Origin: Anaerolineales bacterium
GTDB taxonomy: Bacteria > Chloroflexota > Anaerolineae > Anaerolineales > E44-bin32
DNA length: 63,458 nt
Direction of reading: 5' to 3'
Assembly: GCA_046259355.1 (NCBI GenBank)
Contig: JBJYWH010000298.1
Location: 10,895-74,352 of the forward strand
Shown here: piece by piece, positions 39,125 to 53,677 of the stretch
Layout: every line of letters starts with the position of its first letter
Position numbering within the stretch: position 1 is the stretch's first letter
Translations under genes and position numbers: made by a program
The notes under the pieces: model-generated
Databases searched by the model: none
What the model was told of the DNA's origin: nothing
What the model saw: the letters and a program-made list of their open reading frames with translations, nothing else

Positions 39125-40237
39125 CTACCCGGGTTCGATCGGCAGGGCGATGCGGAACGTGCTGCCCTGTCCGACTTTGCTTTCGACCGTCAGCTCGCCG
39201 CCATGGAGCGCGACGATGCCGCGGCAGATCGCCAGGCCGGAGCCGATGCCCTGCTGCTCCCGCTTGGCGCGATCGATCTGGTGAAACAGATCGAAAAGGC
39301 GATTGAGCTCTTCTTCCGCAATGCCGATGCCTTGATCCTGAATGTGGAGCAAGAGTTTGCCGTCTTCCTCGCTGGCGACAAAACGGACCCATTGGCTGTC
39401 CGCTTCAGAAAACTTGATCGCGTTCTCCAGCAGACGGCCGATCGCATCGGACAGATAGGTTTCATCAATCACGATCGGGGGCAGGTCGTCCGGCACATCG
39501 ATTCGCAGTTCAAGCTTCTTCCGCTCGGCCTCCGGGGTGAATCGCCGGGCCAGGATGCGCAGCCAGGCGCTGGTTTCTTCGACTTGAGCCCGGCGGAAAT
39601 TATAGGCGTTGCGAGCCTCTCCCGACTCCAGTTCCACCAGGATAAGGAAATCTTCCACCAGTCGGTTGAGCCGCTCTGCACCGCGCTTGATGCCGAACAT
39701 GAACTCGTCGAAGTCCTCCGAGGAAAGGCTGCTGCCCTCCTGCGAAAGCAGGTCCGAGTAATTCAGGATGTACGTCAGCGGTGTGCGGAACTCATGCGAG
39801 AGGGTGAGCAAGATCTTGTGCTTGAAATCTTCGATCTCCTCGCTCTGCTGCGAACGTACCGCTTTGAAGCGTGAAAGCTTGCCGTGAATCGCAGCCAGCA
39901 GATCTTCGTCATCGAAAGGCTTGGTGATGTAGTCATCCGCACCCGCCGACCGGCCGCGGCGAATATCGCTCTTTTCCCCGCGTGCGGTCAGAAAGATGAA
40001 GGGCACCGATGTCAGGCGGCCGATCTCGCGCACGGCAGCGTGGAAAGTGTAGCCATCCATCTCGGGCATCATGATGTCTGAGACGATCAGGTCCGGTCGT
40101 TCATCCTCCAGCGCGGCGAGTGCCTCACGACCATTGGAGGCGGTCATCACCCGGTAGCCGCTGATTTCAAGCAGCTCGCGAATGCCTTCCAGGAGCGCCA
40201 GATCGTCTTCCACGACCATAATGAGGGCTTCTGCCAT
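39125..40237 (-). CDS. hybrid response-regulator / histidine kinase (REC-HisKA-HATPase_c)
   Basis: The start is MAEALIMVVEDD (ATG 40237, GGAG 9 nt upstream). Motifs: receiver DLIVSDIMMPEMDG, H-box LSHEFRTPLT, N-box RLLENAIKF, and G-boxes DQGIGI and GSGLAICRGIV. Confidence 0.85.
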   Translation of the reverse strand: MAEALIMVVEDDLALLEGIRELLEISGYRVMTASNGREALAALEDERPDLIVSDIMMPEMDGYTFHAAVREIGRLTSVPFIFLTARGEKSDIRRGRSAGADDYITKPFDDEDLLAAIHGKLSRFKAVRSQQSEEIEDFKHKILLTLSHEFRTPLTYILNYSDLLSQEGSSLSSEDFDEFMFGIKRGAERLNRLVEDFLILVELESGEARNAYNFRRAQVEETSAWLRILARRFTPEAERKKLELRIDVPDDLPPIVIDETYLSDAIGRLLENAIKFSEADSQWVRFVASEEDGKLLLHIQDQGIGIAEEELNRLFDLFHQIDRAKREQQGIGSGLAICRGIVALHGGELTVESKVGQGSTFRIALPIEPG

Positions 40238-40423
40238 CACATCAACTCCGCTGTGCTGAACGGAACCGAAACATCTCGAATTCGAGACATTTCATCCATG
40301 GATCCGCTTGTCGGGCATGTTTTGCAGGGTGCCGGTGATTCGATACCGGCCATGGGCCTGTTAACAAGATACGACGGAGGGAGAAAAAAGCAAGCAAACC
40401 CCCTGGCTTCTTTGGAACCCTGC

Positions 40424-41746
40424 TTAGCTTTCGCGTGAGGTTGAGAGAAGCTTGTAACCCCGGCCGCGGCGGGTGATCAGGTAGCGTGGTTCGGTTGGAT
40501 CCGGCTCGATCTTGCTTCGCAGCCGGCTGATCAGTTTTTCCACCCGGGCGTCATCGACGCTCCCCAGGTAATCCTCGCCCCAGACAGCCGTTACGATCTG
40601 GTACTTGTCCGTCAGCTTATCCCGCCGGGCATAGAGCAGATCGAGCAATCGATATTCGAGGTCGGTCAGGACCGGCACCCGAATTCCATCGACCCACACA
40701 TCGCCCGAATCGCTGTCCAGGAACACTCCTTGTGTATCCACATCCGCGCCACGGCCTTTGCGGGCCACGAAGTCGGTGAAGATCGGGGAGAACGGCTGGC
40801 CATCCCGCAGCAGCCCGAGCGTTTCCAAGCGGTGGACCTGGCGGGGCGGCAACCCGGCATTCGGCTCCAGCACGATGCTGATCAAAGCCTCACGATCGCT
40901 TTCTTCCAGCTGGCTCCACAGTTTGAGGCATTCCGCGCGCGGCTGCGGCTCCACCCGCGCCAGGTACTCCGGATCGATTTTTCGATCGCGGGCGGCGTTC
41001 GCCAACAGCTGGGCCACGGCGATCAGCATGCCAGGATGCCCGCCAGCAAGTTCATGGATCTTCTGCCGGGCTGCGGCCGAGATGCCATGCAGATCGAGCC
41101 GGTCGAGCAGCAGCTCCATCTCCTCATCCGAGAGCAGCGGCATGGTGTAGGTAAATCGGGAGAACAGCTCCGCGAACTCATCTTCGACAGCCTCGCCCCG
41201 CAGCTCAGGCAGGCTCCGTTCGGTCGCAACCGCGTAAACCAGGCGATCATGAAAACGATCCCGCAGTGCCCGCAGATTGAGCAGCGCCCGTTCATCGAGC
41301 GCGGCGTAGATTTCGCCGAACTCATCGAACAGCAGGCACAGGTTTTGTTCCACCTGCTCACAAAGATCGGACAGCGCCAGGTTGAAGGAGAGCGAGGCAG
41401 CAAAGGATGAGTCGGCTTCTGTGATCGTCTGGTGGTGTTCCCGTAAAATCGGCGATAGGGTGCTCTGGATCTTCCGATCTAGATTCTCCAGGATCGAACG
41501 CAGCACGACTTCATAAAACGCCTGGTCGGATATCGCCACCGCCCGGTTGCAGTCGATGTAGACCAGGTAGCCCGTACGGCCGGAGAGCTTCTCGTACTGG
41601 CGCTGCGAATCCTCTTCTACCAGCGAACGCATCAGCATCGACTTGCCGGTGTTGCTCAGCCCAACGATGGATACGCTGTGGCCGGCAGCCATGTCGGCCA
41701 GCACGCGTTCGCGCATCGCCTTGAATGGGAGTTCGGGTTGCGGCAT
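40424..41746 (-). CDS. P-loop NTPase (AAA/STAND-like) with C-terminal OmpR/PhoB-type winged-helix DNA-binding domain
   Basis: 440 aa. Walker A is GLSNTGKS and Walker B-like is CLLFDEFGEIY. The C-terminal trans_reg_C-like region reads LTDLEYRLLDLLYARRDKLTDKYQIVTAVWG...VEKLISRLRSKIE..PRYLITRRGRGYKL. Confidence 0.7.
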   Translation of the reverse strand: MPQPELPFKAMRERVLADMAAGHSVSIVGLSNTGKSMLMRSLVEEDSQRQYEKLSGRTGYLVYIDCNRAVAISDQAFYEVVLRSILENLDRKIQSTLSPILREHHQTITEADSSFAASLSFNLALSDLCEQVEQNLCLLFDEFGEIYAALDERALLNLRALRDRFHDRLVYAVATERSLPELRGEAVEDEFAELFSRFTYTMPLLSDEEMELLLDRLDLHGISAAARQKIHELAGGHPGMLIAVAQLLANAARDRKIDPEYLARVEPQPRAECLKLWSQLEESDREALISIVLEPNAGLPPRQVHRLETLGLLRDGQPFSPIFTDFVARKGRGADVDTQGVFLDSDSGDVWVDGIRVPVLTDLEYRLLDLLYARRDKLTDKYQIVTAVWGEDYLGSVDDARVEKLISRLRSKIEPDPTEPRYLITRRGRGYKLLSTSRES

Positions 41747-41831: not shown

Positions 41832-42392
41832 CTACGAGGTCGTGCGCGTGCGCAGGCTGCGTGCAATGAAGATCACTGCCAGCAGTGCACCGCCCATGAG
41901 AGCCAGGGCTGGCACGCCGAAATCCTCTGCAAAACCGGTCGCCGGCAGGGCGGTTGCCGTTGCAGTGGCGGTTGCACCGCCGCCTCCCTGCCCCGCCGCC
42001 AGCGTTTGCTGGGCCGCGGCGGTCGCCGTCTCCGGCGCCAGGGTTGGCAAGGTCAAGAACGGCGTCGCAGTGCTCGTCGGCAGAACCACGACCTGCGTCG
42101 GTGTCACGGTTGCGGTGGGTTCTTCCGTCTGCGTGGCGGTCGGCGTGCGGGTGGGTGTCAGCTGCACCACGGCCGCCGTCTGCGTCTGCGCCTGCTGGGT
42201 GTTCTGCAAGTTGACCTCAATTACGTCGGTCGCACGCGCTTCTCGCTGGCGGGGCGCCACAACAAGCGCATACACCGCGAGGCAGATCATGCTCAACACC
42301 AGCAATGCCCCGAGGCCACCCGCAGCGATGACAAATGTGCGGTTGGATGACTCTTCCGGCAGCGGTGCTCCTACATCAAAGTCTTCTGCCAT
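41832..42392 (-). CDS. LPXTG-type (LPATG) sortase-substrate protein with N-terminal TM helix and Thr/Pro/Ala-rich stalk
   Basis: 186 aa. The C-terminus is LPATG, followed by a hydrophobic stretch (VPALALMGGALLAVIFIA) and a basic tail RSLRTRTTS. GAGGAG SD lies upstream. Confidence 0.6.
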   Translation of the reverse strand: MAEDFDVGAPLPEESSNRTFVIAAGGLGALLVLSMICLAVYALVVAPRQREARATDVIEVNLQNTQQAQTQTAAVVQLTPTRTPTATQTEEPTATVTPTQVVVLPTSTATPFLTLPTLAPETATAAAQQTLAAGQGGGGATATATATALPATGFAEDFGVPALALMGGALLAVIFIARSLRTRTTS

Positions 42393-42466
42393 CGTCTCTA
42401 CTCCTCAGCGTCCAGGCCGCTATCGCCGCTACCTGACCGGTCTGCGTGCCCGCCTGCTCGCCATTT

Positions 42467-43534
42467 TTACTGTAAGATCTCCAAGTTCGCCAGTGGAACG
42501 GTCGTCGTACCTACCCCTTCAATTTCAACGGCGGCGCTTCTGGCACGCACACCGCTCGGATAACTTGCGGCTGCGGTCAGCAGTTCCCGTACGACTCCGA
42601 CCTCGCCCTGGTAGGGTGGTTTCAAGATTCGTACCCGCCGGCCGGGTTTCAATGCAACGACTTCTTCCGGCAGCGCAACCTGCCGGCTGGCCGGCAGCGG
42701 AATGACGACTTCGGGACGTGATCCGGGCTGCGGCCAGGGACTGCCGGCATCAACCGCCACCTCCCGGCCAACGTTGTTCAGCAGCAGGTGGTAGGCCAGG
42801 CTGTTCAAGGGTCGTTCGCCGAATCCCTCAATCAGCAGCAGCGGGTATGGCAGCTTGCGCGCGACCGGGATGAGCTCGGCCGCCATCCCACCCAGAATGA
42901 CCCCCCGCACCGAGAGTTCCGTCGCCTGGTGCAGGGGCGCGGAATGATCGCAGAGCCCCGCCACCAGGACAGCCCCGCGCAGATTGACATCGAGGTGGTC
43001 GGTCTGCAGGCGGGAAGCCGGGCTGTCGCCCACCATGCGCATCACACCGTAATCCTGCAGCCCGTTGCCCCAGACAGCCTGGACCAGCGCGCCGGTCGTC
43101 TCGACCGTCACCACCTGGCTGCCATCGCTGCCGATCACGACACCGGGAAAACCGGCCCGCAGCTGCAGCAGTTCGCCGCGCGCCTCCAGCAGCACCCGGC
43201 CCTGGCGGATATCCGCGATATGGCCCTCGGCCGGTGCCCGCACGCTGCGCCGCGTCAATCCCACCGGGCCGGCAATCAGCTGGCCCGCTTCGACCCGGTC
43301 ACCCTTCTGCGGCACGATATGCCGGGCAGCCGCTTTCGGGGTCATCCCCAGGCCGCGGGCGATATCGAGATAGTAGTGCTTGGGCTCGATCTCGGCTTCC
43401 GCCACCACATCGGATGCCTGGACCTTTTCGTTCACGCGCACCATGATCGCACCGGGCACAGGCAGGATGCGCTGGCGGCGAATAGCCGTCATCGGCAGCA
43501 CATGGGTGATGGAGGGTAAAAAGATTTCAGACAT
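42467..43534 (-). CDS. hypothetical protein (barrel-like N-half, KOW-like motif near C-terminus)
   Basis: 355 aa with no family recognised. It has GDRVEAGQLIAGPV (lipoyl/hybrid-barrel-like) and GRRVRILKPPYQGEVGVV (KOW-like). Confidence 0.55.
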   Translation of the reverse strand: MSEIFLPSITHVLPMTAIRRQRILPVPGAIMVRVNEKVQASDVVAEAEIEPKHYYLDIARGLGMTPKAAARHIVPQKGDRVEAGQLIAGPVGLTRRSVRAPAEGHIADIRQGRVLLEARGELLQLRAGFPGVVIGSDGSQVVTVETTGALVQAVWGNGLQDYGVMRMVGDSPASRLQTDHLDVNLRGAVLVAGLCDHSAPLHQATELSVRGVILGGMAAELIPVARKLPYPLLLIEGFGERPLNSLAYHLLLNNVGREVAVDAGSPWPQPGSRPEVVIPLPASRQVALPEEVVALKPGRRVRILKPPYQGEVGVVRELLTAAASYPSGVRARSAAVEIEGVGTTTVPLANLEILQ

Positions 43535-43574
43535 GGCTCATCGGCCTACTGGGATGCAAGAAAGGTGCCAGGGA

Positions 43575-45335
43575 TCACGTTCGGGCTCCAATATCGTGCA
43601 GCCACTTCAAATTCAGCTCCTGCTGGCGCTCGGTATCCTCGAGAAGTTCAAGCGGGCGCCCGCGCGCATCGATGATCAACCCGACCACACCTCCGGCCAC
43701 TCGCAGGGCACCAGCCTTGCCGGGGCCGCCAAAGCCGACATCGAAGCCGCGTTCGGGACGCAGCGTGAGCTTGCCGTGGTCACCGGGGCGCAGGGGGACC
43801 ACAACCAGCTGGCCCATGCGCACCTCGCCGGCAATATCCTCCGTCCCCTGGTCATATTCAAGCCGCAGGCTGAGCACCTTGCGCCCGGTGCGCGCCGTGC
43901 CCACGGGCGAAACGACCGTCCCCAGGCTGACGTAGCTGCCCGATTCGAGCACATGCACGGTGAGCATCGGCACCGAGCCGGCCGCAGCGCCGAGCGAGGG
44001 CGAAAGGCCATGCGGGTCGAGCACCAGCGTGGAGATGCCGGTTGGCTGGAGCGCGTCCAGCAGCGCCAGTGCAGCATACCCCGGCTTCGGCGCCCGGCCG
44101 AAGACAGCCCCGCTGGCGATCACGGGCTCGATCGGCGGCAGCAGCCATGAGGCGTTTAAATTCTTGCCGCTCGGCCACTGCAAACGGGCCTGGTGCAGGG
44201 CTACCCGCAGGATCTCCCGCGCCAGCGCAAGCTCGATTTCCAAATCAAGGTCTTCGGTGGGAATCGTGCTGGGCGCCACCGATTTGTTGTACATGTAATC
44301 GAGCAGTTCACCCGGCGGGATCTCCCGCGGCAGCCAGCGCAGGATGTCCGGCAAGCGGACGTGACGCAGCAGCTTCGGCAGCGGCTCTCCCATCCCCAGG
44401 CCGGTTTCAACCCGCATGCGCAGGTCGCCCTCAAAGGAAGCGGCCACCATCGTGTGGCTGGCGCCGACGTCCACGCCGAGCACACCTTTTTCGGGGTCAT
44501 AAATCCGGCTGAGATAGCGGATGACCCGGCCGAAGGCATCAGCGGTGAGCATCAGCCGGCCGCCCGACCACTGTTCGAGCTCCTCATAGCCGCGAATCTG
44601 GCGGGCACGTGCCTCGGAAATCGCTTCACCCAGCGCCAGGCGGGCGTGAGCCAGGTCCTCCACCTCGAGACTGGGGCGGACGTTCGGCGCCTGCGCCAGG
44701 TCGTAGCGGTCATCGAAGCGGTCGGCGACCGTTGCCGCCAGGCCGCGGTTGGCCGCGTAGACAATGCGCGGACGTTGTGACGGTGGAAACTGGCTCACGG
44801 CAATAGACGCCAGATCGATCAACTGCAGGACCGAATCCTGCGCCCCGCCATCCGTGCCGCCGGCGATCAGGATCAGGTCCGGCCGGGCGGAAAGGATGGC
44901 ATCGATTTTCTCTTCCTCCCGGCGGCTGTCCAGCAGGTGAATCGTCTCAACAGCTTCCAGGTAGGTCGAGTCAGCCAGGCGCAGCGCGCTCTGCGTGGAC
45001 ACACCCGGCATCAGGCCCAAGATGACCGTGCGGACCTTGGGGCCGGCCGAGCCGGTGGCGACGAACATGTCCACGCCAGCACCCTGACCGGTCACCGGCA
45101 TGATCAGCAGATCCGAATCATCCACCAGCTGGCGGCCGGTGATGGTCTGCACGCGTTCGATCGCCATCCGCACGCCCTCGCTCACATCAAACAGCGGCGG
45201 TCCGGCCGTGGACGGAGCCCGCCCGGTTGCAATCAACCGGTAGCGCCCATCGACGACATCGAACAGGCTGGCGCGGGTGTTGACCGTACCCACGTCAATC
45301 GCTAGCAGCGTATCGGCATCGAGATAGGTGCTCAT
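43575..45335 (-). CDS. actin-fold (ASKHA) ATPase, GlmL/MutL-like
   Basis: The start is MSTYLDADTLLAIDVGTVNTRASLFD (ATG 45335); the ORF-track frame extends to 45401. A second nucleotide-binding-like segment is VLGVDVGASHTMV. Overall it resembles the glutamate mutase accessory protein family, from memory. Confidence 0.65.
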   Translation of the reverse strand: MSTYLDADTLLAIDVGTVNTRASLFDVVDGRYRLIATGRAPSTAGPPLFDVSEGVRMAIERVQTITGRQLVDDSDLLIMPVTGQGAGVDMFVATGSAGPKVRTVILGLMPGVSTQSALRLADSTYLEAVETIHLLDSRREEEKIDAILSARPDLILIAGGTDGGAQDSVLQLIDLASIAVSQFPPSQRPRIVYAANRGLAATVADRFDDRYDLAQAPNVRPSLEVEDLAHARLALGEAISEARARQIRGYEELEQWSGGRLMLTADAFGRVIRYLSRIYDPEKGVLGVDVGASHTMVAASFEGDLRMRVETGLGMGEPLPKLLRHVRLPDILRWLPREIPPGELLDYMYNKSVAPSTIPTEDLDLEIELALAREILRVALHQARLQWPSGKNLNASWLLPPIEPVIASGAVFGRAPKPGYAALALLDALQPTGISTLVLDPHGLSPSLGAAAGSVPMLTVHVLESGSYVSLGTVVSPVGTARTGRKVLSLRLEYDQGTEDIAGEVRMGQLVVVPLRPGDHGKLTLRPERGFDVGFGGPGKAGALRVAGGVVGLIIDARGRPLELLEDTERQQELNLKWLHDIGART

Positions 45336-45342
45336 TGTCTGC

Positions 45343-46068
45343 TCAGGATCCACCGATGAGCGAGTTGATGACTTGCCGCAGGAATTCGAACCGCTGGCCA
45401 AGCACGAGAATCGCGGCAGTCAGCGCGCCGGCATACATCACACCAAACGTGATCGCAATAAAAACCTGGCCGACGTATGCCAGGATGGCGGTCAGCCGTG
45501 AGCGGCGGGTTCCCCCTGTAACATCGCGCTGCGCGGCAAACCGGAAATAGATCAGAGTGCTGATCGTCGCCAGCAGCACGATCAGCGAACTGATCGCACG
45601 CTCGAGCCAGATCGAAGCCGGCTCACCGGCGACGGGGAACAGGCTTTCAGGGGCGAGCGAATCCGCGGCCGCCATACTCTGCGGTATGAGCGTCCCGGTG
45701 ATTCCGCCGCCCACCACCACCGCTGCCCCGACCCCGACCAGCATCGCCACCGGGAGGCTGCCGAAGCGGGCCAGCCGGGGCGAAAGTTTGAACGCGAAAA
45801 GAATGGTCAGGATCCACGGGACGATGAAGGTGCCCAAGGCCTCCCAGCCCAGAATGCTGGTCCCGTCCCCGCCCAGGATCGGATCGACCAGCGCCGGCAG
45901 GATGACATTACGCACCGCAATCGCGCCGGCGTAACCCGAAGCGACGCCGATGAAGAGGTACGTGGCAATGCGAAACAGCACATTGTCCTTGATGACATAA
46001 CTCAAAACCATCAAGGTCAAGAGCGCGCCGAACACCATGCCGATCAGGTCAAGCGAAAACTCAGCCAC
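45343..46068 (-). CDS. polytopic membrane protein (~7 TM), hypothetical
   Basis: 241 aa with a GTG start 6 nt after the upstream TGA; GAGG overlaps that stop. Confidence 0.6.
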   Translation of the reverse strand: MAEFSLDLIGMVFGALLTLMVLSYVIKDNVLFRIATYLFIGVASGYAGAIAVRNVILPALVDPILGGDGTSILGWEALGTFIVPWILTILFAFKLSPRLARFGSLPVAMLVGVGAAVVVGGGITGTLIPQSMAAADSLAPESLFPVAGEPASIWLERAISSLIVLLATISTLIYFRFAAQRDVTGGTRRSRLTAILAYVGQVFIAITFGVMYAGALTAAILVLGQRFEFLRQVINSLIGGS

Positions 46069-46074
46069 GGTACC

Positions 46075-48348
46075 TCATTCCGTCCGCCGCCTGCGCAGGC
46101 TCACCAGCCAGGCGCCGGCGCCGTAAAGCGCGCCCGCCAGCAGAATTAATTCAACGAACAGCATGCCGCTGCCGAACGTATTCCAGATATCGCCGGTCGT
46201 GCTCTGCTGGCCATTCAGATCTTCATAGGCCAGTGCAGCCGGCAGGCCGGTGAGAATACCGTTCACCAGCGGTTCACTCGATTCGTAATAAGGCCGCACG
46301 AGCGGTTCGGCGCCGGCGCTCAGCACCATGATCAGCGGTCGATCGCCGATCCAGGGGTGGGTCTGCTCGGCCCAGTTGCGAGCCGTTTCCGTCCCGGAAG
46401 TGATCACGACCACCATTCCAAAGTCGGACAGCCGGGTGATTCCGGCCAGGAGCGGATGGCTCCAGATCGCTGATCTTGCCTGCGGTCCCAGTCCAAGTGT
46501 GCTGGCCTCCCCGGTTTCGGGGACGAGAAAACCGGTCAGCACAGCGTCGCGTGGCGAGATGGCGAACAGCTGCACCGCGGTTGGGCCGCCGGCCAGGTAG
46601 CCGAGATGGACGTACGCCTGTCCGTTCACCGCGGCATACGGCGCGCCCAGTTCGCTCAAGAGCCGTTCCGCCAGCGGCGGTCCGGTGGGGCGCGTGGAAA
46701 GCGTGACCAGCGGAATAGCCCGTGCGAATGCGTGCCGGATCAGCGCGCCGGCGACATTATCCAGCTCGCCGCTGTAGCTGGGCGTGTAATCGAAGATGAT
46801 CAGCGCCGGCCGATCAGCCGGTACGCTGTTGACCAAGCTTTGCAGCGGGACAAGCTCGCGAGGAATATCGACCGGATGGGAAAAGCCCTGCAGCCCCAGC
46901 CGGCTGAAAGAAGGCGGCAGCAGCACCGCCAGCAGGATCAAGAAGCTGATGATCCAGCGTGCGATCGGGAGCGGCCGGCCGGGACGGCGTGCGATCATCG
47001 ATTCGCGCTGCTCCTCCTCGATCAACCGGTGCAGCAGCTCACCCTGGGCGTACTGCCGTTCGCTGACCTCGAGCCGTGCCGCCGCCGCGGAGGAGGTGCG
47101 CGGGATCGCCACGACCGGCTCCGCCATCAGCACACCGCGCAGCCCGGCCAGCGGTCCGACCGATTCAACCGCCTGCACATCTTCCGGGACGATCTCGATC
47201 TCAGGCCGGAAGGTGTCAACCGGCCGCATCGCCTCCAGCCAGGAAGGCAGCGTTGCCGGCGCCAGATCGGCTTCCTCGGCCTCCTCTTCGGGTTCGGCGG
47301 GTTCACCCTCTTCGGGCATCTCCTCCATCGGCTGGAGCCGCAGGTTGTCCAGCCAGGCGGGGAGTTCGATCGAATCGAGCGCCCTTTCATCAATTTCGAT
47401 GATGGGGCGCTCTCCGCTCTCGTCACTCACCAGGGCCGGTACATGCGGCTCTCCATCCTCGCCACCCGCCTGCTCCTGGTCTACCGGCCTGCCTTCCCCC
47501 TCGCCCCAGTCGATGCCGAAGCCGCTCGCCGCCACGCGACGTTGACCTTCTTCAGCTTCCTCTTCTGCGCGCGCGCCAAGCACATGCGGCGATCCGGGTA
47601 CGCCGGGTACGTCTGAGAGCTTGCCCAGGTCAATCGAAGGGGGTGTGGGATAAATGTCGCGCCCCTGCCCAGGCTTGAGATCGGGCAGCTCGCGCTCTTC
47701 GGCCGGCGGCTCCTCCTCCGACTCTTCATCCTCGCCGGGAAGCAGCCCTTCAAGGCCGGAATCGAAGGGTTCTGATTCTGCGGCGGAAAATTCGGCCGGC
47801 TCTTCTTCCTGCGCGCTGCGCAGTTTATCGAGCCAGTCCTCGCCCGCATCACCAGCAGCTGGTGCTTCTTCCTCCGGCTGGAATCCCTTCCGGGCGCGCA
47901 CGCGCGCCAGCCACTCCGGAACGTCGCCTGCGTCCTCTTCTTCGACGGCTTGCGGTTTTTCTTCATCGCCAGCGGCGATGAACTCGTCCATCCACTCCGG
48001 GATCGCCTCCTCAGGCCCGCCCAGGTTGTAGCGGTCCTCGGCGTCCCGCATGCCGCCCAGCCAATCGGGCGAACCGGTGGCGCTCTCGGAGTAACCCGGC
48101 TCCGCCGGTTCCTCCGGTTCGGGTTCTTCCTCCGGCTCGCTGACGCCAGCCCGAATGCGGGCCAGCCAATCGTCGACCTCGCCGGTATCGCCCTGGTCCT
48201 CCGCTGAAAAGTCCTCCCGGCGCGGTTCCTCCGCCTCGGGGTGGGCATCGCCAGCAAGCAGGGGCTTGAGCCGCGCGCCGCAGGAGACGCAGGTTTCAGC
48301 CTCCGCCGGGTTGAGCGTACTGCACATCGGGCAGCGCTGCTCTGCCAT
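46075..48348 (-). CDS. zinc-ribbon protein with acidic xWLxxxR repeat region and TM-anchored C-terminal domain, hypothetical
   Basis: 757 aa. It has the ribbon CPMCSTLNPAEAETCVSCGARL, seven copies of [PDE]xW[LM]xx[LMIF][RI], a TM helix (IARWIISFLILLAVLL), a ~270-aa domain and a final TM helix plus RRRRTE. Confidence 0.7.
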   Translation of the reverse strand: MAEQRCPMCSTLNPAEAETCVSCGARLKPLLAGDAHPEAEEPRREDFSAEDQGDTGEVDDWLARIRAGVSEPEEEPEPEEPAEPGYSESATGSPDWLGGMRDAEDRYNLGGPEEAIPEWMDEFIAAGDEEKPQAVEEEDAGDVPEWLARVRARKGFQPEEEAPAAGDAGEDWLDKLRSAQEEEPAEFSAAESEPFDSGLEGLLPGEDEESEEEPPAEERELPDLKPGQGRDIYPTPPSIDLGKLSDVPGVPGSPHVLGARAEEEAEEGQRRVAASGFGIDWGEGEGRPVDQEQAGGEDGEPHVPALVSDESGERPIIEIDERALDSIELPAWLDNLRLQPMEEMPEEGEPAEPEEEAEEADLAPATLPSWLEAMRPVDTFRPEIEIVPEDVQAVESVGPLAGLRGVLMAEPVVAIPRTSSAAAARLEVSERQYAQGELLHRLIEEEQRESMIARRPGRPLPIARWIISFLILLAVLLPPSFSRLGLQGFSHPVDIPRELVPLQSLVNSVPADRPALIIFDYTPSYSGELDNVAGALIRHAFARAIPLVTLSTRPTGPPLAERLLSELGAPYAAVNGQAYVHLGYLAGGPTAVQLFAISPRDAVLTGFLVPETGEASTLGLGPQARSAIWSHPLLAGITRLSDFGMVVVITSGTETARNWAEQTHPWIGDRPLIMVLSAGAEPLVRPYYESSEPLVNGILTGLPAALAYEDLNGQQSTTGDIWNTFGSGMLFVELILLAGALYGAGAWLVSLRRRRTE

Positions 48349-48352
48349 CTAC

Positions 48353-49015
48353 TTAATCACCGTATGGCCGGTCGATCGCCAGCAGCACACGCAGGCCGGT
48401 GACGATCGATCCCAATGCGACACCCAGCAGAACGCCGCGCGCTCCGCCAGCCGCCGCGACCTGAGCCAGCCAGTTTCGCAATCCACTGAACAGCGCAAAA
48501 CCGGAGCTGGCATTTGGAACGATACCGGGTCCGGAGCCGATCAGAACCAGCACAGCCGTGAGGATGAACGCCAGGCTGATGAGATCACGCCGGCGCTGCA
48601 GGGTGCGGAATCCGGCCAGCGTCAGCGTGATCGCCAGCAGCGCACCCAGGCTGGCTTCCACCGGCAGCTGGATCGCATTGAACAGCAGCAGCACGATCCG
48701 GCTGTCCGGGCCGAAGACCAATCCGAGGATCAGCGTGATGAAGAAGGTCAGAATCAGCAGGGCGCTGTAGCCCCAGCCGCGCTCCTGGTCGCTTACTTTC
48801 CGCCAGTGAACCGTGAACAGGTTGATCAAGCCCAGCAGCAGGCCGACCGCTGCGAGCAGCACCGCCCAGCGCATGATCAGCAGCCGCAGGCCGAAAATCG
48901 TGCCCAGCAGTCCGGACGACGCCACGGCGTCGATCTCGACGAAGTAACCCAGCAACACGATCAGCCCGGTGCCAACGGCGGTGGCAGCCCAGAGCATATA
49001 GGAGCCGAGCTTCAT
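48353..49015 (-). CDS. polytopic membrane protein (~6 TM), hypothetical
   Basis: 220 aa. The ATGA start overlaps the stop of the upstream gene. Confidence 0.6.
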   Translation of the reverse strand: MKLGSYMLWAATAVGTGLIVLLGYFVEIDAVASSGLLGTIFGLRLLIMRWAVLLAAVGLLLGLINLFTVHWRKVSDQERGWGYSALLILTFFITLILGLVFGPDSRIVLLLFNAIQLPVEASLGALLAITLTLAGFRTLQRRRDLISLAFILTAVLVLIGSGPGIVPNASSGFALFSGLRNWLAQVAAAGGARGVLLGVALGSIVTGLRVLLAIDRPYGD

Positions 49016-49773
49016 ACGCCGATTCCCAGCAGGCGCAGCAGCCCGCCAAGCAAGATGCCGCCGATCAGGATGAAGCGCACGGCATCCTGCACCCGCAGGC
49101 TGGCTCGATGGGAGGGATCCTTCTGCAGGTAGGCCCCGCCAGCGAAGACCTCTTCCCCGATGAGCGGATAGCTTGCGGTCGCGTACAGCAGCGCCTGGGA
49201 TTGTGCGTCATCGGTGCCGGCCAGCACGAAGATGCCCGCTCGCTCCCCGAAGTCAGCCGCCAGCGCGCCCTCCGACCCGAAAGAACCGGCCAGGACATGG
49301 GCGGAGACATCTTCGCTGGCAATCAGGATCGGGAGGCTTGCCACGTAGGAGTAGGGTGTCGGACCCAGCATGCGAGCCCGATTGGGGCCGAAGCGGTCGA
49401 GTGCGCCTGCCGCCCGGTAGACGCTGCGCAGCGAATCCTGCGCCAGAATGGCCATGGCTCCATCGCCGGTGCTGACAACCATCGGTTTGTCGCTGAGCGT
49501 GGTCATGCGGGCGATGTAGCCGAGAATCGCCAGGCCGGCCAGCGCCGGCGCGCTGTCGGTGCCGATCAGCGAACCGGTGCCGAGCGAAAGGTGGACGCGC
49601 TCCCCGGCCTCGACGGCGCGCTCGATCGCCCGGTCGAGGGCCTCGTAGCCCGGAATCGACCGGAACAACCCACCGCGCCGTTCCCCGATTCCCAGGAAAA
49701 TGAACAGCAGGACGAGAAACAGCCCCAGGACCAGCAAGCCGAGAAGATCAATGCTGCCCATGACGTTCCTCAC
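49012..49773 (-). CDS. membrane protein with one TM helix at each end, hypothetical
   Basis: 253 aa. The N-terminal helix is LLGLLVLGLFLVLLFIFLGI and the C-terminal helix is FILIGGILLGGLLRLLGIG. An alternative start is at 49761. Confidence 0.6.
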   Translation of the reverse strand: MRNVMGSIDLLGLLVLGLFLVLLFIFLGIGERRGGLFRSIPGYEALDRAIERAVEAGERVHLSLGTGSLIGTDSAPALAGLAILGYIARMTTLSDKPMVVSTGDGAMAILAQDSLRSVYRAAGALDRFGPNRARMLGPTPYSYVASLPILIASEDVSAHVLAGSFGSEGALAADFGERAGIFVLAGTDDAQSQALLYATASYPLIGEEVFAGGAYLQKDPSHRASLRVQDAVRFILIGGILLGGLLRLLGIGV

Positions 49774-49993
49774 CCCGCAGTTCTGCCGTCAATTCATCCA
49801 TCTTCACCGGATCCTCGAGCGCTTTCACGACCGACTCCCAGGTCTCGCCTCCGCCAACGAGCGGCTGCAGGAGCAGCATGCCCTGGGCGCCAAGCGGCGC
49901 CAGAGGCGCGAATCCCTCCAGCAAAGTGGCCGCAATCGATCCAAGGCCCATGCGGCGGAACCTCTGGACGATCTCTTCCCGTGTCTGGCCCAT
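49748..49993 (-). CDS. 81-aa protein, hypothetical (first gene of operon)
   Basis: The start is MGQTREEIVQRF, preceded by GGGAGG. TATACT (rc of 50011-50016) lies 17 nt upstream. The ORF-track frame extends to 50143. Confidence 0.45.
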   Translation of the reverse strand: MGQTREEIVQRFRRMGLGSIAATLLEGFAPLAPLGAQGMLLLQPLVGGGETWESVVKALEDPVKMDELTAELRGEERHGQH

Positions 49994-50182: not shown

Positions 50183-51361
50183 ATGAGTCTTGACCTGCCC
50201 GAACTGCTTCCTCAGGTGCAACAACTGAGCCAATCTGTTCAAACGCAGCAATCCCGGCGCGCGGAACAGCTGCAGGCAGCCCTTGCTGCCTACCGCAGCC
50301 TGCTCGAGCTGCCCCCGGATGAACTCCATCACCGGCTGACACAGGCTGGAAGCCGCTGGACCGGCGCCCGGCCGTCCCATGACGCGCTGGATGAGAGCTT
50401 CCCGCCGCCTCCCTCGACCCCGGGCCTGTACGTGATCGGTGCCGACGGATCCCAGATCTATCCCGACCGGCACGCGGCGGCGTTCTTCTTTCTGGTCAAT
50501 CTGGCCGGAATTTGCCTGCAGCACGGTTCGGAATCCGCCCCGCGGACGCAGACCAGCACCCGTCTTTACTTCGAACCGGAGCAGCTCCGGTATGAGAGCG
50601 ACCTGCCGGTGGAAAGCGCATGGGTCAACCTGCAGCGCGACCTGGGCGAGATGAGCATGCTGGCCGATCTGGCGGAAGGAGCTCTTGAGGGTCACGGCCT
50701 GGCGCTTCTGGACAACAGCCTGCTGCTGTGGATGCTGCTGCAGGCGCGCGGGGCCGGTGAGCGGGAGCTGGACCGGATCCTGAAGGCGTATCTGGACGCC
50801 ATGCGCAGGCTGCAGGCTTCGGGCGCCGCGCTGGCTGGCATCGTCGACCGGCCGCGCAGCAGCAACGTGCTGGCTCTTGCTGGCCTGGCAAGCCCGAGCG
50901 ATGAAGGAATGGAGACCGAAGAAACCCAACGGCCCCCGTTTCCAGGCCTCACCGACCTTGATCTCTACCTGCAGCTGCTTCCGGAAGGATCCCGCAGCCC
51001 GTGTTTCGAACTGGTATCTCCGCTCAATCGGGACTTCAGCACAGCCGGGCAGGCGGTCCACTTCTTCTACCTGCATATTGCGAATGAGCAGCTGCTGCGG
51101 GTGGAGGTGCCGGACTGGGTCGCCAGCGACCGGGCGCTGCTGGACCGCGTGCACGCCGGACTGCTGCGTGAAGGCCAATCGACCGGCGGCTATCCGTATG
51201 TGCTGGTTCGAGCTCACGAACTGGCCGTGGTGACCCAGGCGGAACGATCGCTGGTCGAGGAATGGATCGGCCGCGAGCTCAGCGCCCGTGGCATACCCCC
51301 GGCCCGCTCGCGTAAGTCGCAGGCAAAGACACTGACCTCCGGCGTTGGGCGCCGGCGATGA
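50183..51361 (+). CDS. nurA: NurA-like nuclease
   Basis: 392 aa. VIGADGSQIYPDRH resembles the NurA catalytic Asp motif, with a second LLDNSLLL segment. It lies in an operon with a HerA-like ATPase. Confidence 0.65.
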   Translation: MSLDLPELLPQVQQLSQSVQTQQSRRAEQLQAALAAYRSLLELPPDELHHRLTQAGSRWTGARPSHDALDESFPPPPSTPGLYVIGADGSQIYPDRHAAAFFFLVNLAGICLQHGSESAPRTQTSTRLYFEPEQLRYESDLPVESAWVNLQRDLGEMSMLADLAEGALEGHGLALLDNSLLLWMLLQARGAGERELDRILKAYLDAMRRLQASGAALAGIVDRPRSSNVLALAGLASPSDEGMETEETQRPPFPGLTDLDLYLQLLPEGSRSPCFELVSPLNRDFSTAGQAVHFFYLHIANEQLLRVEVPDWVASDRALLDRVHAGLLREGQSTGGYPYVLVRAHELAVVTQAERSLVEEWIGRELSARGIPPARSRKSQAKTLTSGVGRRR

Positions 51362-51969
51362 TTGGAGACATCCCCATGCCTGAAACGACCGGTCCGATCG
51401 GACGCATAACCCGCTGCAGCACGCAGTTGTTTTCCGGGGCCGTGCATCCTTCCGCGCTGTCCCGGCCCGCGTTCGGCGCATTCTGCCAGGCCGAGGACAC
51501 GGCCGGCGAGATCAAGGTCATCGGTGTGATTTACGATCTGCGCATCGAGGATGATCCGCTTGCGCGCCAGATGGCCGCCCTGGAGGACCTGCCAGCCGAA
51601 CAACTGGCGGACGCGCAGAAAAACCGTCAGGCACCGGTCGAATTCAGCGCGCTGACGGTGGGTTATGAGCAAGGGGATCGGATCATCTATGCTCTCCCGC
51701 CCCGGCCGCCGCTCACGCTCTCGCCGGTTTTTCTGCTCTCGGGGCAGGACCTGCTTCGATTCACCGGAGAGGCCAGCTTTGCCCGCCTGATCCTGGCGAG
51801 CCCCAATCTTCCGTCCGAACAGCTGCTGGCCGCGGCCCTGCGCTCCGCGATCGCTGCCCGGCCGGAAGGCGATCGCGATCGCTACCAACTGCTCGCCGGG
51901 CGGACCGTTGCCCGGCTGCTGGCCGGCGATCTGCCGCGCCTGGAAAATGTCCTGGGGGCGCTGCGATAG
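51358..51969 (+). CDS. hypothetical protein, HAS-barrel-like N-terminus
   Basis: 203 aa. The ATGA start overlaps the nurA stop. The N-terminal GPIGRITRCSTQLFSGAV...EIKVIGVIYDLRIED resembles the barrel that precedes HerA ATPase domains. There is no P-loop. Confidence 0.5.
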   Translation: MIGDIPMPETTGPIGRITRCSTQLFSGAVHPSALSRPAFGAFCQAEDTAGEIKVIGVIYDLRIEDDPLARQMAALEDLPAEQLADAQKNRQAPVEFSALTVGYEQGDRIIYALPPRPPLTLSPVFLLSGQDLLRFTGEASFARLILASPNLPSEQLLAAALRSAIAARPEGDRDRYQLLAGRTVARLLAGDLPRLENVLGALR

Positions 51970-52018: not shown

Positions 52019-53677
52019 ATGGACCGCATGAGCGAAACGCCCCGTCTCGATGAAGTCTTTGGACCCGCGCGGTCCGAGCGCCCGCTGGGCCAGGTGATGG
52101 AGGGATCGCTCTCCACCGGCCTGAAGGTCCGCCTCGACCCCGGTTTCACGCTCGAACGCATGGCGGTTGGGCGATACGTCGTCATTCTCGGCCGCCAGAC
52201 CGGGATCACCTTCTTTGGCTTGATTACCGATATCGCCCTCGAAGCGAGCGATCCCGGCCTGATCCACCGTCCGCCGCAGGCCGACGACCGCCTGTCGCTC
52301 GACGTCTACCTGGGCGAGGTCGCTTACGGCACGCTGCACGTCAGCCCGATGCTGATGCTGGAGGCCGACCAGGACCAGCCCCGCCCGATCAAGACCATTC
52401 CGACACATTTCTCGCACGTCTACGAAGCCTCGGCCCAGGACGTCGCGCGCGTCTTCGGAGAGGAAGACGAAACGCACTTCTTCGTCGGCACGCCGCTCGA
52501 CATGGAAGCCGTGCAGGTCAACCTCGACCTGGGGCGCTTCGTCGAGCGCTCGTCGGGTGTTTTCGGCAAGACCGGCACCGGAAAATCCTTCATCACGCGC
52601 ACGATCCTGGCCGGCATCGTCCAATCGGGATTGGCCTCGACCCTCATCTTCGACATGCACAACGACTACGGCTGGAGCGTGAAGGACGAGAGCGGCCGGG
52701 CGTACAAGGGCCTGCGCCAGCTCTTCCAGGATGGGCGGGTGAGCGTGATCACGCTGGATGAGAATACCTCGCGCGCCCGCGGCAGCAAGATCGATGGACG
52801 GCTCACGATCGGCTACGAGGATCTCGAACCGGAGGATGTCGAGATGCTGGCCTCGCTGCTCGGCCTGACCGACGTCCAAACCCAGGCGCTTTACTTCCTG
52901 CACCGTCGGCTGGGGGTGGACTGGATCAGCCGGTTGATGAGCGAGAGCGGCGAGGAGGACGAGCTGCAGGAGATGATCGACAGCGGCCGCATCGTGGCCG
53001 GGACGCTGGGCGCCATCCGGCGAAAATTCGAGTCGTTCTTCCCGCGCATGGGATTCCTCGTCCCGGGGAGCGCCAACCAGTCCGTGGATGATGTCTTTCA
53101 ACGCCTGAGCATGGGCACGAGCGTCGTGCTCGAGTTCGGGAATTACGGCAACACGCTGGCGGCCTACGTGCTGGTGGCGAACTACCTTACCCGCCGCATC
53201 CATGCCCGCTACGTCCACCTAAAAAACCTGGCGGCAGGACAGAAAGCGGAAGAGCCGCGTCCGCTCGTGATCGTGATCGAGGAGGCGCACAAGTTCCTCG
53301 ATCCGCAGGTCGCCGGCCATACCATCTTCGGCACCATCGCCCGCGAGCTGCGCAAGTACAACGTGACGCTGCTGATCGTCGACCAACGACCGAGCGGGAT
53401 CGAAGACGAGGTGATGAGCCAGATCGGCACGCGCGTGACCTGCCTGCTCGATAACGACGCCGACATCCGGGCGGTCTTCTCCGGCGTGAGCGGGGCCGGC
53501 GCGCTGCGGGAGGTGCTCGCCCGGCTCGACACCCGCCAGCAGGCCTTGATCCTCGGGCACGCGGTGCCGATGCCGGTCGTGGTGCGCACGCGCGATTACG
53601 ACCAGGATTTCTACGCCTCGATCACCGGCGTGGCAGCCGGCAGCGCTTCGGCCGGCGAATCGCTCTTCGGCGAATGA
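52019..53677 (+). CDS. herA: HerA/FtsK-like hexameric ATPase (DUF87-type)
   Basis: 552 aa. It has a HAS-barrel-like N-terminus (GQVMEGSLSTGLKVRLD..GRYVVILG), Walker A GVFGKTGTGKSF, Walker B LVIVIEEAHKFL, and LLIVDQRPS. GGAG SD lies upstream. Confidence 0.8.
   Translation: MDRMSETPRLDEVFGPARSERPLGQVMEGSLSTGLKVRLDPGFTLERMAVGRYVVILGRQTGITFFGLITDIALEASDPGLIHRPPQADDRLSLDVYLGEVAYGTLHVSPMLMLEADQDQPRPIKTIPTHFSHVYEASAQDVARVFGEEDETHFFVGTPLDMEAVQVNLDLGRFVERSSGVFGKTGTGKSFITRTILAGIVQSGLASTLIFDMHNDYGWSVKDESGRAYKGLRQLFQDGRVSVITLDENTSRARGSKIDGRLTIGYEDLEPEDVEMLASLLGLTDVQTQALYFLHRRLGVDWISRLMSESGEEDELQEMIDSGRIVAGTLGAIRRKFESFFPRMGFLVPGSANQSVDDVFQRLSMGTSVVLEFGNYGNTLAAYVLVANYLTRRIHARYVHLKNLAAGQKAEEPRPLVIVIEEAHKFLDPQVAGHTIFGTIARELRKYNVTLLIVDQRPSGIEDEVMSQIGTRVTCLLDNDADIRAVFSGVSGAGALREVLARLDTRQQALILGHAVPMPVVVRTRDYDQDFYASITGVAAGSASAGESLFGE

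Follow-up and report, generated by a model that had tools for sequence, protein, structure and literature searches.

Conserved genes for a probable two-module membrane system with an actin-fold ATPase in Anaerolineae and archaea

Introduction

What could an actin-fold ATPase of the MutL/GlmL family be doing next to a row of membrane proteins? The question is raised by an operon in a 63-kb stretch of DNA from an Anaerolineales bacterium (contig JBJYWH010000298.1; "the window" refers to this whole stretch). The operon consists of eight co-directional minus-strand genes, here called g1 to g8, which run in the list of open reading frames (ORFs) from position 49993 down to 41832; the sixth encodes the ATPase. 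GlmL/MutL is known as an accessory protein of the coenzyme-B12-dependent glutamate mutase. The original prediction, made from the letters of the stretch, had described a MutL/GlmL-like ATPase in a setting without mutase genes and had proposed the operon as a candidate for an undescribed system. We find that the genes very probably encode a real, conserved complex of two modules that is unrelated to glutamate mutase. The assembly is matched by no solved structure, curated model, defence catalogue or paper that we searched, and its function is one that we infer. One component belongs to a named family (MutL/GlmL) and fails the equivalog and context tests of that family, one is a domain of unknown function (DUF), and the rest are without a family.

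Results

Conservation of the gene cluster in bacteria and archaea

Scanning one genome per GTDB species with the ATPase yielded 80 loci from Anaerolineales, Thermoflexia, Ardenticatenaceae, Caldilineaceae and Ca. Leptofilum, together with two archaeal metagenome-assembled genomes (MAGs). The closest relatives of the window are Anaerolineales MAGs, with up to 90% identity in the ATPase. In tblastn searches with the window proteins, g2-g3-g4-g5-g6-g7 were all present and colinear in 60 of the 65 loci with enough flanking sequence, and this colinearity persisted down to 33-36% ATPase identity; the five loci that departed from it are detection failures or two rearranged archaeal loci. The same searches detected g1 in 48 loci and g8 in 58. 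Because g2-g7 stay together at 33-36% identity while the NurA/HerA genes that flank the operon are lost, the block is conserved beyond background synteny, and the gene order extends far past the very close relatives to which a chance arrangement might have been confined.

The same families occur in archaea. Locus L080 is truly archaeal, carrying an unsplit Rpb2-type RpoB with Rpb2 domains 4 and 5, L082 is labelled Bathyarchaeia and L108 carries an archaeal-type FEN-1. In L080 and L082 the ATPase-g7 pair is accompanied, a few genes away, by g2, a membrane protein of ~216 amino acids, a protein of ~275 amino acids in which a domain is held between two transmembrane (TM) helices, and g5; the archaeal g4 corresponds to the C-terminal core of the window g4 only. 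A search with the archaeal g2 returned 58 clusters, all with its Pfam family PF20539 (DUF6754). Throughout the contexts L083-L087 the four membrane genes form an intact operon, and the ATPase and g7 genes lie within 10 kb of it in L086 and L087 and not in L083-L085. The order in L087 is MR_MLE, g2-g3-g4C-g5, B12-radical SAM, g1-ATPase-g7, p357 and radical SAM; L080 has ATPase-g7 first and the membrane genes after. A third order, ATPase-g7-(g1)-g2-g3-g4-g5, is found in L108, L125, L126, L130 and L140, and in part in L104, L124 and L133. A metagenome scan seeded on DUF6754 added ~30 loci of at least 8 kb, and nearly all of them have the membrane genes. About half of the loci with these genes and 10-kb flanks have no ATPase nearby. 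Because the membrane and ATPase parts are so often encoded apart, we regard the system as built from two modules, a membrane module of g2, g3, the g4 core and g5 and a cytoplasmic module of g1, g6 and g7. That the same families are linked in three gene orders and in two domains of life strongly indicates a functional partnership between them.

In the window, the eight genes and their junctions could be reproduced from the ORF coordinates exactly as predicted. From g1 to g8 the junctions measure -26 (or -14), -4, +4, +6, +7, +40 and +74 nt, and the first six genes are translationally coupled or nearly so (-26 to +7 nt). A GGGAGG ribosome-binding site 5 nt before the ATG of g1 supports its 81-amino-acid start, which also fits the 76-84 amino acids of its orthologues; the 586 amino acids of g6 are the modal length among orthologues. 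A consensus scan gave two sigma-70-like promoter candidates on the minus strand, TTGACC-18-TACAAT at 50115-50086 (a 10/12 match and the better of the two) and TTCACG-17-TATACT with an extended TG at 50039-50011, the latter containing the TATACT that had been noted earlier. The scan of the whole region found 3 promoter-like sites against 1.6 +/- 1.2 expected and is thus weak evidence. The domain calls of the original prediction all hold in Pfam, hydropathy and profile searches, with some corrections to the picture drawn from them. Among the three proteins that had been called polytopic, g3 and g5 are multi-pass and g2 is bitopic with a predicted cytoplasmic Rossmann-like domain. The eight genes stand as a unit, and the unit extends beyond them to a co-conserved regulator of the STAND-wHTH type and a co-conserved REC-histidine kinase downstream. 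Finally, the zinc-ribbon/acidic region of g4 and the LPATG protein g8, listed before as parts of the unit, are lineage-specific add-ons and not core.

The cytoplasmic module

The ATPase g6 (43575-45335, minus strand; 586 amino acids from an ATG) has the ASKHA (actin) fold and matches PF13941 MutL at an E value of 2.8e-54 (185.1 bits against a cutoff of 27), its residues 11-464 aligning with positions 2-447 of the 450 in the model. This was the only Pfam family at E<=0.1, with no match to MreB, FtsA, PilM, ParM or actin families. The protein falls below the NCBIfam cutoffs for NF040745 GlmL (68.6 against 475 bits), TIGR01319 (52.3 against 204) and NF040744 Or-4 (43.4 against 600). The PF13941 match and the lack of mutase S/E genes in the operon and its flanks agree with the MutL/GlmL-like ATPase in a non-mutase setting that had been predicted. 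Single-sequence and profile searches of the PDB found no sequence relative, solved DdrA or RACo chains included. A search with the ATPase gave 1120 homologues; identity is 60% or higher throughout the best 120, and some carry the label 'glutamate mutase L' in Anaerolineales MAGs.

Conservation within g6 is concentrated at two sites. Residues D14, G16, T20, G159, G160, T161, G164, G291 and G409 show at least 95% conservation among 77 orthologues, those of archaea included, so that the nucleotide-site signature is kept: phosphate-1 (D14, G16, T20), GGTDGG, phosphate-2 and the adenosine glycines. The C-terminal ~120 residues (122) lie beyond the Pfam model and form a conserved extra domain with a DARGRP motif and W578; here D556, R558, G559, R560, P561 and W578 reach the same level of conservation. 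As read from the alignment, this pattern fits a nucleotide site that is active and an extra domain that is essential. Conserved Cys or Fe-S motifs are absent from g6, and g2, g6 and g7 have no invariant cysteines.

The gene that follows, g7 (42467-43534, minus strand; 355 amino acids), takes this place in almost all loci that continue beyond the ATPase gene, a pattern that points to an obligate, fixed partner. At E<=1e-30 the g7 family counts 806 representatives (50% clusters), a number that rises to 1722 at E<=1e-10; its members are uniformly ~350 amino acids long, and none is a fusion. The AlphaFold2 (AF2) model of g7 (pLDDT 86) contains a barrel-sandwich hybrid (~12-126), an alpha/beta domain (~131-262) and a KOW/SH3-like barrel (~295-355). 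In Pfam, RnfC_N is matched near threshold (23.7 bits against a cutoff of 25.6). The RnfC_N/NqrA_N barrel-sandwich family marks peripheral subunits that dock on membrane subunits of Rnf/Nqr. A profile of 38 g7 orthologues reached the KOW domains of Spt5, NusG and L24 in the PDB at an E value of 1e-5, and NqrA or lipoyl domains at ~0.01; the NqrA chains matched at E 0.011-0.017, and a few orthologues carry a precomputed PF13375 match. Foldseek searches of the PDB gave matches at the level of domains only (Thermotoga maritima NusG, Spt5 KOWs and, for the middle domain, RraA with a TM-score of 0.48), and no chain has the architecture of g7. We rejected whole-chain fold identity for the g7 and g2 models alike, the PDB having returned domain-level or generic Rossmann matches only. 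Lipoylation or biotinylation of g7 is unlikely because it has no invariant lysine. In two archaeal loci g7 is followed by an unannotated protein of ~357 amino acids (L080 13105-14178; L087 11633-12706), the two copies being 30% identical to each other.

The third member of the module, g1 (49748-49993, minus strand; 81 amino acids from an ATG), is a small hairpin protein and a core component. Its parts are an amphipathic, W-rich helix at the N-terminus, a hydrophobic hairpin punctuated by prolines and an 'LEDP' helix, with A9, P30 and P44 conserved. Its bacterial homologues lie upstream of g2, and those in the archaeal loci L082 and L087 lie immediately upstream of the ATPase gene; g1 travels with g2 in bacteria and with the ATPase in archaea.

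The membrane module

The protein g2 (49012-49773, minus strand; 253 amino acids from a GTG, or from an alternative ATG at 49761) belongs to DUF6754 (PF20539; E 1.5e-33, 116.5 bits against a cutoff of 27), a family that has no assigned function and is mentioned in no paper of the literature searched. A hydropathy scan and the AF2 model agree on a TM helix at each end. The model (pLDDT 87, pTM 0.81) places a six-stranded Rossmann-like alpha/beta/alpha domain between TM helices 2-29 and 220-248. It has no PDB match at E<1e-3, the best being generic Rossmann proteins (MurG, DprA, TcdA and SIS) with TM-scores of 0.35-0.39, and single-sequence and profile searches of the PDB found no relative. The domain is predicted to be cytoplasmic because its flanks are rich in Lys and Arg and because the variant in L093 (9590-10750) has, ahead of TM1, a signal peptide and an additional N-terminal domain on the outside. 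Residues R38, E55, G65, G163, G186 and D230 are invariant in bacteria and archaea, G65 lying in the beta1-loop 'SLGTGSL'. Archaeal-type g2 proteins (P0241-P0297; alignment A8, column 314) also have a near-invariant 'WL' dipeptide within a few residues of the C-terminus, after TM2. The ATPase has an invariant W578-L579 close to its own C-terminus, and both may be related to the W-motifs of the bacterial g4 tail.

The multi-pass proteins g3 (48353-49015, minus strand; 220 amino acids, ~6 TM helices) and g5 (45343-46068, minus strand; 241 amino acids, 6-7 TM helices) have ~6-7 hydrophobic segments each in a crude hydropathy scan. Conserved in g3 are N65, H70, Y83 and S84 and a C-terminal motif 'AGARGxLLGVALG...GLRVLxGxDRPY'; g5 has a conserved N-terminal motif 'LTLxVxSYLxGDNxLFR' with the polar residues S23, Y24, D28 and R33. 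In both proteins the conserved polar residues lie in or near hydrophobic segments. The two halves of g3 are weakly similar (hhalign probability 19%). Neither protein could be assigned to a Pfam family, in the window or across the alignment members (30 for g3 and 31 for g5), nor to a PDB relative by sequence profile. By hhalign there is no homology among g1-g8. Paralogy of g2 and the g4 core, both with a TM-alpha/beta-TM layout, and of g3 and g5 was considered and rejected (hhalign probability <=1%).

The largest protein, g4 (46075-48348, minus strand; 757 amino acids), combines a conserved core with two lineage-specific additions. The core (46075-47028, minus strand) comprises a TM helix, an extracytoplasmic domain of ~250 amino acids with an alpha/beta pattern, a second TM helix and a basic tail, the TM segments spanning residues 459-477 and 731-749 by hydropathy. 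The archaeal and L093-type homologues consist of the core alone (272-283 amino acids). We place the core domain on the outside because the zinc ribbon and the acidic region of ~430 amino acids, which must be cytoplasmic, precede the first TM helix. No Pfam family was consistent across the alignment members of the core. The only PDB match, a 75-residue profile alignment of the core with residues 140-215 of the MacB nucleotide-binding domain (E 4.6e-4), was judged spurious, since this segment lies outside the cytoplasm and the remainder of an ABC domain is missing; ABC_tran had no Pfam match in the window proteins or the members of the g4-core alignment. One orthologue, probably that of L075 (6149-9352), has an ectodomain about twice the usual length, with TM segments at residues 468 and 1039, and one member of the core alignment carries a bacterial SH3_3 domain (E 8e-21). 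Both are consistent with an extracellular, possibly wall-binding, location of the core.

The zinc ribbon of g4 (48268-48333, minus strand) is formed by C6-x2-C9 and C20-x2-C23 (CxxC-x10-CxxC) and matches Zn_Ribbon_1 and DZR in Pfam below threshold. The CxxC..CxxC pattern is found in most Anaerolineales orthologues and is missing from archaeal and L093-type g4. It is followed by an acidic disordered region (47029-48267, minus strand) of variable length, which in the window protein contains seven copies of the motif '(P/D)(D/E/A/S)W(L/M)xx(L/M)R' ('LPxWLxxLR') and then a conserved 'GPLAGLRGVL'. Orthologues have 1-7 copies of the motif, and the 1243-amino-acid g4 of L057 has two zinc ribbons and more than 20 'L(P/T)xW(L/F)' motifs. 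The best-conserved parts of the tail are the membrane-proximal 'ELPAWLDNLR' and 'TLPSWLEAMRP', followed by 'GPLAGLRGVL'. A scan of the window found no such array in the other ORFs. The tail looks like a multivalent scaffold of short linear motifs, for which g6 or g7 would be the obvious candidate partners. As it is absent from archaeal and L093-type systems, we take it to be an accessory device for recruitment or regulation and not part of the core mechanism.

Neighbouring genes

The last gene of the operon, g8 (41832-42392, minus strand; 186 amino acids), encodes an LPATG protein that has a TM anchor at the N-terminus and then a linker rich in Thr and Pro, and that ends in a sortase signal, LPATG-FAEDFGVPALALMGGALLAVIFIA-RSLRTRTTS. 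Its orthologues keep the LP(x)TG, the hydrophobic stretch and an RRxR, which fits the predicted class of sortase-anchored LPXTG proteins. The gene is present in 14 loci with less than 50% ATPase identity and missing from the archaeal loci, and we regard it as a bacterial add-on. After g8 and on the same strand, the STAND-wHTH regulator (40424-41746) joins an AAA_16 NTPase to a C-terminal OmpR/PhoB winged-helix (wHTH) domain in Pfam; 45 loci have it there, including 10 whose ATPase identity is below 50%. The REC-HisKA-HATPase hybrid histidine kinase (39125-40240, minus strand) is likewise co-conserved, with full-length homologues of 37-44% identity directly after the cluster in the distant loci L052, L056, L057, L059 and L061. 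When the ORFs of 33 distant, mostly Anaerolineae, loci were clustered, the sole other recurrent neighbour was a phosphohexomutase gene of the PGM/PMM family. It lies near the cluster in the window (37614-39086, plus strand) and seven distant Anaerolineae loci, and in the remote L093/L094/L099/L112 clade (L001 19620-21080, L002 15130-16587 and L093 8042-9385 are examples). Rather than synteny, the adjacency may reflect a functional connection with the metabolism of sugar phosphates or amino sugars.

In a bacterial-looking subclade (L091, L093 and L112), g3 and g4 are separated by the gene for a membrane-anchored PP2C phosphatase of the SpoIIE type (L091 11583-12764; L093 11546-12727; L112 5959-7143). 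It is in this clade that g2 acquires the signal peptide and outside domain described above for L093. The neighbours in these loci include a REC-REC regulator, PGM/PMM, DUF1611 and a D-Ala-D-Ala carboxypeptidase.

The archaeal-type membrane module sits among catabolic genes. L085 has three copies of MR_MLE, GD_AH+SAF, HpcH aldolases and an FAA hydrolase, L086 has MR_MLE, a DHDPS-family aldolase, Ldh_2 and ADH, and L087 has MR_MLE. Amidohydro_3 recurs in L082, L084, L141 and L148, the Peptidase_M19 dipeptidase in L082 and L084, a D-Ser-dehydratase-like gene in L084 and L148, and PmbA/TldD in L104 and L125. No other transporter gene was found in the 18.7-kb stretch of L085, nor nearby in several such catabolic loci. 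Genes related to B12 occur in 5 of the 7 annotated archaeal-type loci (L080 and L082-L087). They are B12-binding radical-SAM genes in or next to the cluster (L080 14175-15626; L085 11208-12740; L087 6399-7958 and 12710-12934) and, flanking the module in L083 and L086, pairs of a B12-binding corrinoid protein and a URO-D methyltransferase. The earlier statement that cobalamin genes are absent thus holds for the genes tested in the window, where no tested ORF is B12-binding and archaeal B12 radical-SAM queries had no tblastn match, and does not extend to the archaeal versions.

Divergent from the operon, on the plus strand, are genes for a NurA nuclease (50183-51361), a 203-amino-acid ORF (51358-51969) and a HerA-like DUF87 ATPase (52019-53677). 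The trio adjoins the cluster only in relatives with ~58% or more ATPase identity and for this reason is probably an independent bacterial module. A defence system, which the NurA/HerA pair had brought to mind, was rejected: PADLOC and PHROGs were null, and the adjacency is lost below ~58% ATPase identity. Elsewhere in the window, as ordinary chromosomal context, are a 626-amino-acid protein with a C-terminal FHA domain (4119-5999, plus strand) and a 769-amino-acid class B penicillin-binding protein with MecA_N, PBP dimerisation and transpeptidase domains (15327-17636, minus strand). No tRNA or Rfam family was found in the 63 kb. L069 has a T-box leader upstream of the cluster region (2801-3097, minus strand; 93.9 bits against a gathering score of 93), which is on the opposite strand and probably unrelated to the cluster.

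Discussion

A tentative model for uptake or sensing

The undescribed status that had been claimed for the system stands, as it matches no described system in the libraries, structures and literature searched. Profile searches placed no member in a known, unrelated pathway, PADLOC-DB and PHROGs had no match for g1-g8, Pfam had none for g3, g5 or g8, and literature searches on DUF6754, PF13941, GlmL with ASKHA, and MutL-like or actin-like with Chloroflexi returned nothing relevant. In the core, the only cofactor or catalytic signatures are those of the ATPase. Taken with the three-layer anatomy (an ectodomain, multi-pass membrane proteins and cytoplasmic partners) and the catabolic islands, this leads us to propose, tentatively, a solute-uptake or ligand-sensing machine that is gated or energised by the ASKHA ATPase. 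An uptake role is favoured because the archaeal-type membrane module lies among catabolic enzymes, in several loci with no other transporter, which is how genes for uptake are commonly placed. In such a machine, the ectodomain of g4 would bind an external ligand and g3 and g5 would form the transmembrane path. From the cytoplasmic side the ATPase/g7 unit would dock on the g2 domain and, in Anaerolineae, also on the g4 tail with its multivalent LPxWL motifs. Closure of the actin fold, driven by ATP, might then gate uptake, or might phosphorylate and trap the imported solute, and through the same device the linked STAND-wHTH regulator and REC-kinase could be informed of ligand occupancy. The physical assembly, the direction of transport and the substrate are what we infer. 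Speculatively, the substrate could be peptide, D-amino-acid or amino-sugar material derived from peptidoglycan and taken up for salvage, an idea suggested by the recurrence of D-amino-acid and peptide enzymes and by the PGM/PMM and D,D-carboxypeptidase neighbours. A second ground is that the peptidoglycan-recycling kinases AnmK, NagK and MurK are ASKHA enzymes.

Several points weigh against this proposal. No component matches a known transporter family in Pfam (single sequences and alignment members) or in PDB profiles, and we know of no transporter powered by an ASKHA protein. The modules may not be obligate partners, because about half of the membrane-module loci with 10-kb flanks have no ATPase nearby. 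The neighbours of the Anaerolineae operon are limited to regulators, the LPXTG protein and the PGM/PMM gene, none of them catabolic, so the argument from catabolic islands rests on archaeal-type metagenome loci, about a dozen contexts of uneven quality. The long acidic motif array is, moreover, unusual for a transporter subunit. A bolder version of the uptake or sensing proposal, that this is the first machine for membrane transport or transmembrane mechanotransduction to run on an actin-fold (ASKHA) ATPase and not on a P-loop, P-type or rotary one, we consider rather doubtful. It would amount to a new class of primary active transporter or sensor common to Anaerolineae and Bathyarchaeia-type archaea, in which a barrel-sandwich/KOW coupling subunit and, in bacteria, a multivalent motif tail would recruit the ATPase.

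Alternative explanations

Transmembrane signalling is an unlikely alternative, in which nothing would be transported: the g4 ectodomain would sense an external or cell-wall cue, the ATPase/g7 unit would act as a nucleotide-dependent switch, and the output would be the co-encoded STAND-wHTH regulator, REC-histidine kinase or PP2C phosphatase. The recurrent neighbours in bacteria are indeed signalling genes, with the STAND-wHTH regulator in 45 loci and the REC-kinase directly after the cluster in distant lineages, and in the L091/L093/L112 clade the SpoIIE PP2C gene sits inside the membrane module with a REC-REC regulator close by. The layout of g4, with zinc ribbon, disordered region, TM helix and ectodomain, also recalls anti-sigma or sensor proteins. 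The archaeal versions, however, are without these signalling genes and lie among catabolic enzymes, and a set of four membrane proteins, including two multi-pass ones that carry conserved polar residues, exceeds the needs of a typical sensor. The adjacent regulators may, besides, merely control the expression of the operon.

No more probable is an envelope or cytoskeletal scaffold, in which the ASKHA protein would polymerise or cycle like MreB or FtsA on a platform of g2-g5, the W-motif tail of g4 would recruit it in Anaerolineae, and wall or filament morphogenesis would involve the LPXTG protein. It draws on the actin fold of the ATPase, on its very strong conservation (60-70% identity across the order) and on the bitopic and small polytopic partners, which recall MreB-RodZ-MreC-MreD or PilM-PilN-PilO. 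The motif array of g4 is reminiscent of docking peptides, such as the 'DIPxFLR' of FtsZ, or of WH2 arrays, and the conserved LPxTG protein g8 and two wall-related neighbours, the PGM/PMM gene and, in one clade, the D-Ala-D-Ala carboxypeptidase, also speak for it. Against it, the ATPase belongs to the MutL/hydantoinase branch and not to the MreB, FtsA, ParM or actin families, and to our knowledge no MutL-family member polymerises. The core also occurs in archaea, which have no peptidoglycan; their versions have neither the tail nor g8, and the membrane module there lies in catabolic islands. The cytoskeletal, envelope-assembly or export role first suggested for the operon is unsupported. A cultured member of the related Caldilineae has an ordinary FtsZ-based division system, and a taxonomic survey singled out only Ktedonobacteria as lacking mreBCD. 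There is no missing function to replace. An FtsZ-less division machinery in Anaerolineae, which we had also considered, found no support in the literature searched, the cultured Caldilineae member dividing with FtsZ.

Less probable still is a cobalamin-related role, with g6 as a chaperone or reactivase of corrinoid enzymes, a role that has been proposed for ASKHA proteins of the GlmL, EutA, DdrA and RACo types, and the membrane module importing or handling corrinoids. The ATPase family is named after the glutamate-mutase accessory protein, and B12-binding genes are in or next to the cluster in five of the seven annotated archaeal-type loci. Bathyarchaeia-type genomes are, however, rich in corrinoid enzymes, and the adjacency may be due to chance. 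No B12-binding gene is present in the operon, the tested window flanks or the recurrent neighbours of the 33 distant loci, and the scores of g6 are far under the GlmL and Or-4 equivalog cutoffs. A cobalamin riboswitch, which would have marked a corrinoid transporter, was found neither in the window nor in six diverse bacterial loci, and that candidate was rejected. Finally, a conserved syntenic block of functionally unrelated membrane and soluble proteins, with no single machine behind it, would explain why the two modules can be encoded apart and is very improbable, given the coupling of the first six genes and a linkage that is kept in three gene orders and two domains of life while the flanking synteny decays.

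Significance

Anaerolineae rank with the most abundant heterotrophs of sediments, soils and wastewater sludge, and Bathyarchaeia make up a major group of the subsurface. A seven-protein membrane system that is near-universal in the sampled Anaerolineae, common to archaea and without one characterised component is therefore a sizeable blind spot. If the actin-fold ATPase does drive or gate a membrane process, it would add a new principle of energy coupling to membrane biology, and the large MutL/GlmL family would gain a role outside B12 mutases. Several families can now be defined for annotation and experiment: DUF6754, for which there is a model, g3, g5, the g4 core and g7, whose representative clusters exceed 800. 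The 'LPxWLxxLR' array is, in addition, a clean candidate for a new short linear docking motif in bacteria.

Comparison with known systems

The closest named relative of the ATPase is GlmL/MutL, with which g6 shares the PF13941 family, the ASKHA fold and the GGTDGG and DxG signatures of the nucleotide site. Unlike GlmL, a single module of ~450-460 amino acids, g6 has 586 amino acids and an extra C-terminal domain, and it scores below the 475-bit equivalog and 204-bit subfamily cutoffs. Its surroundings differ as well, with no mutase S/E genes nearby, g7 almost always next and a linkage to four membrane proteins. DdrA/PduG, EutA and RACo are ASKHA chaperones or reactivases of corrinoid enzymes that act on partner proteins and not on small molecules. 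They are like g6 in having an actin-fold ATPase, and the archaeal clusters adjoin B12-binding proteins; however, g6 has no match to solved DdrA or RACo chains, and the bacterial operons are without B12 enzymes.

The likeness to Rnf/Nqr complexes lies in the N-terminal barrel-sandwich domain of g7, which resembles that of NqrA and RnfC at a borderline score, and in the multi-pass partners of ~210-240 amino acids, similar in size to NqrD/E. The rest of g7 (alpha/beta and KOW) has no match to NqrA or RnfC, however, g3 and g5 and their 30-31 orthologues have no Rnf-Nqr family match, conserved cysteines and flavin-site motifs are absent, and an ASKHA ATPase stands in place of the redox subunits. 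An Rnf/Nqr-like redox pump was accordingly rejected, with no Rnf-Nqr family matches and no conserved Cys or cofactor motifs.

With MreB-RodZ-MreC-MreD and PilM-PilN-PilO the system shares an actin-fold ATPase encoded with bitopic and small polytopic membrane partners, and the 'LPxWLxxLR' of g4 is loosely like the C-terminal docking peptide 'DIPxFLR' of FtsZ in the FtsA-FtsZ pair. In contrast to these actin-like systems, g2-g5 are unrelated to MreC/D, RodZ and PilN/O, and the motif tail is missing outside Anaerolineae. Multi-component importers whose binding domain is tethered to the membrane, such as TRAP/TTT transporters and ABC importers with fused or anchored binding proteins, offer a different kind of parallel. 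The window proteins have no sequence kinship to DctPQM, TctABC or ABC proteins, and their ATPase is of the actin fold and not P-loop, yet the two share a general plan: an extracytoplasmic alpha/beta domain, small polytopic subunits, cytoplasmic accessories and a setting in catabolic islands.

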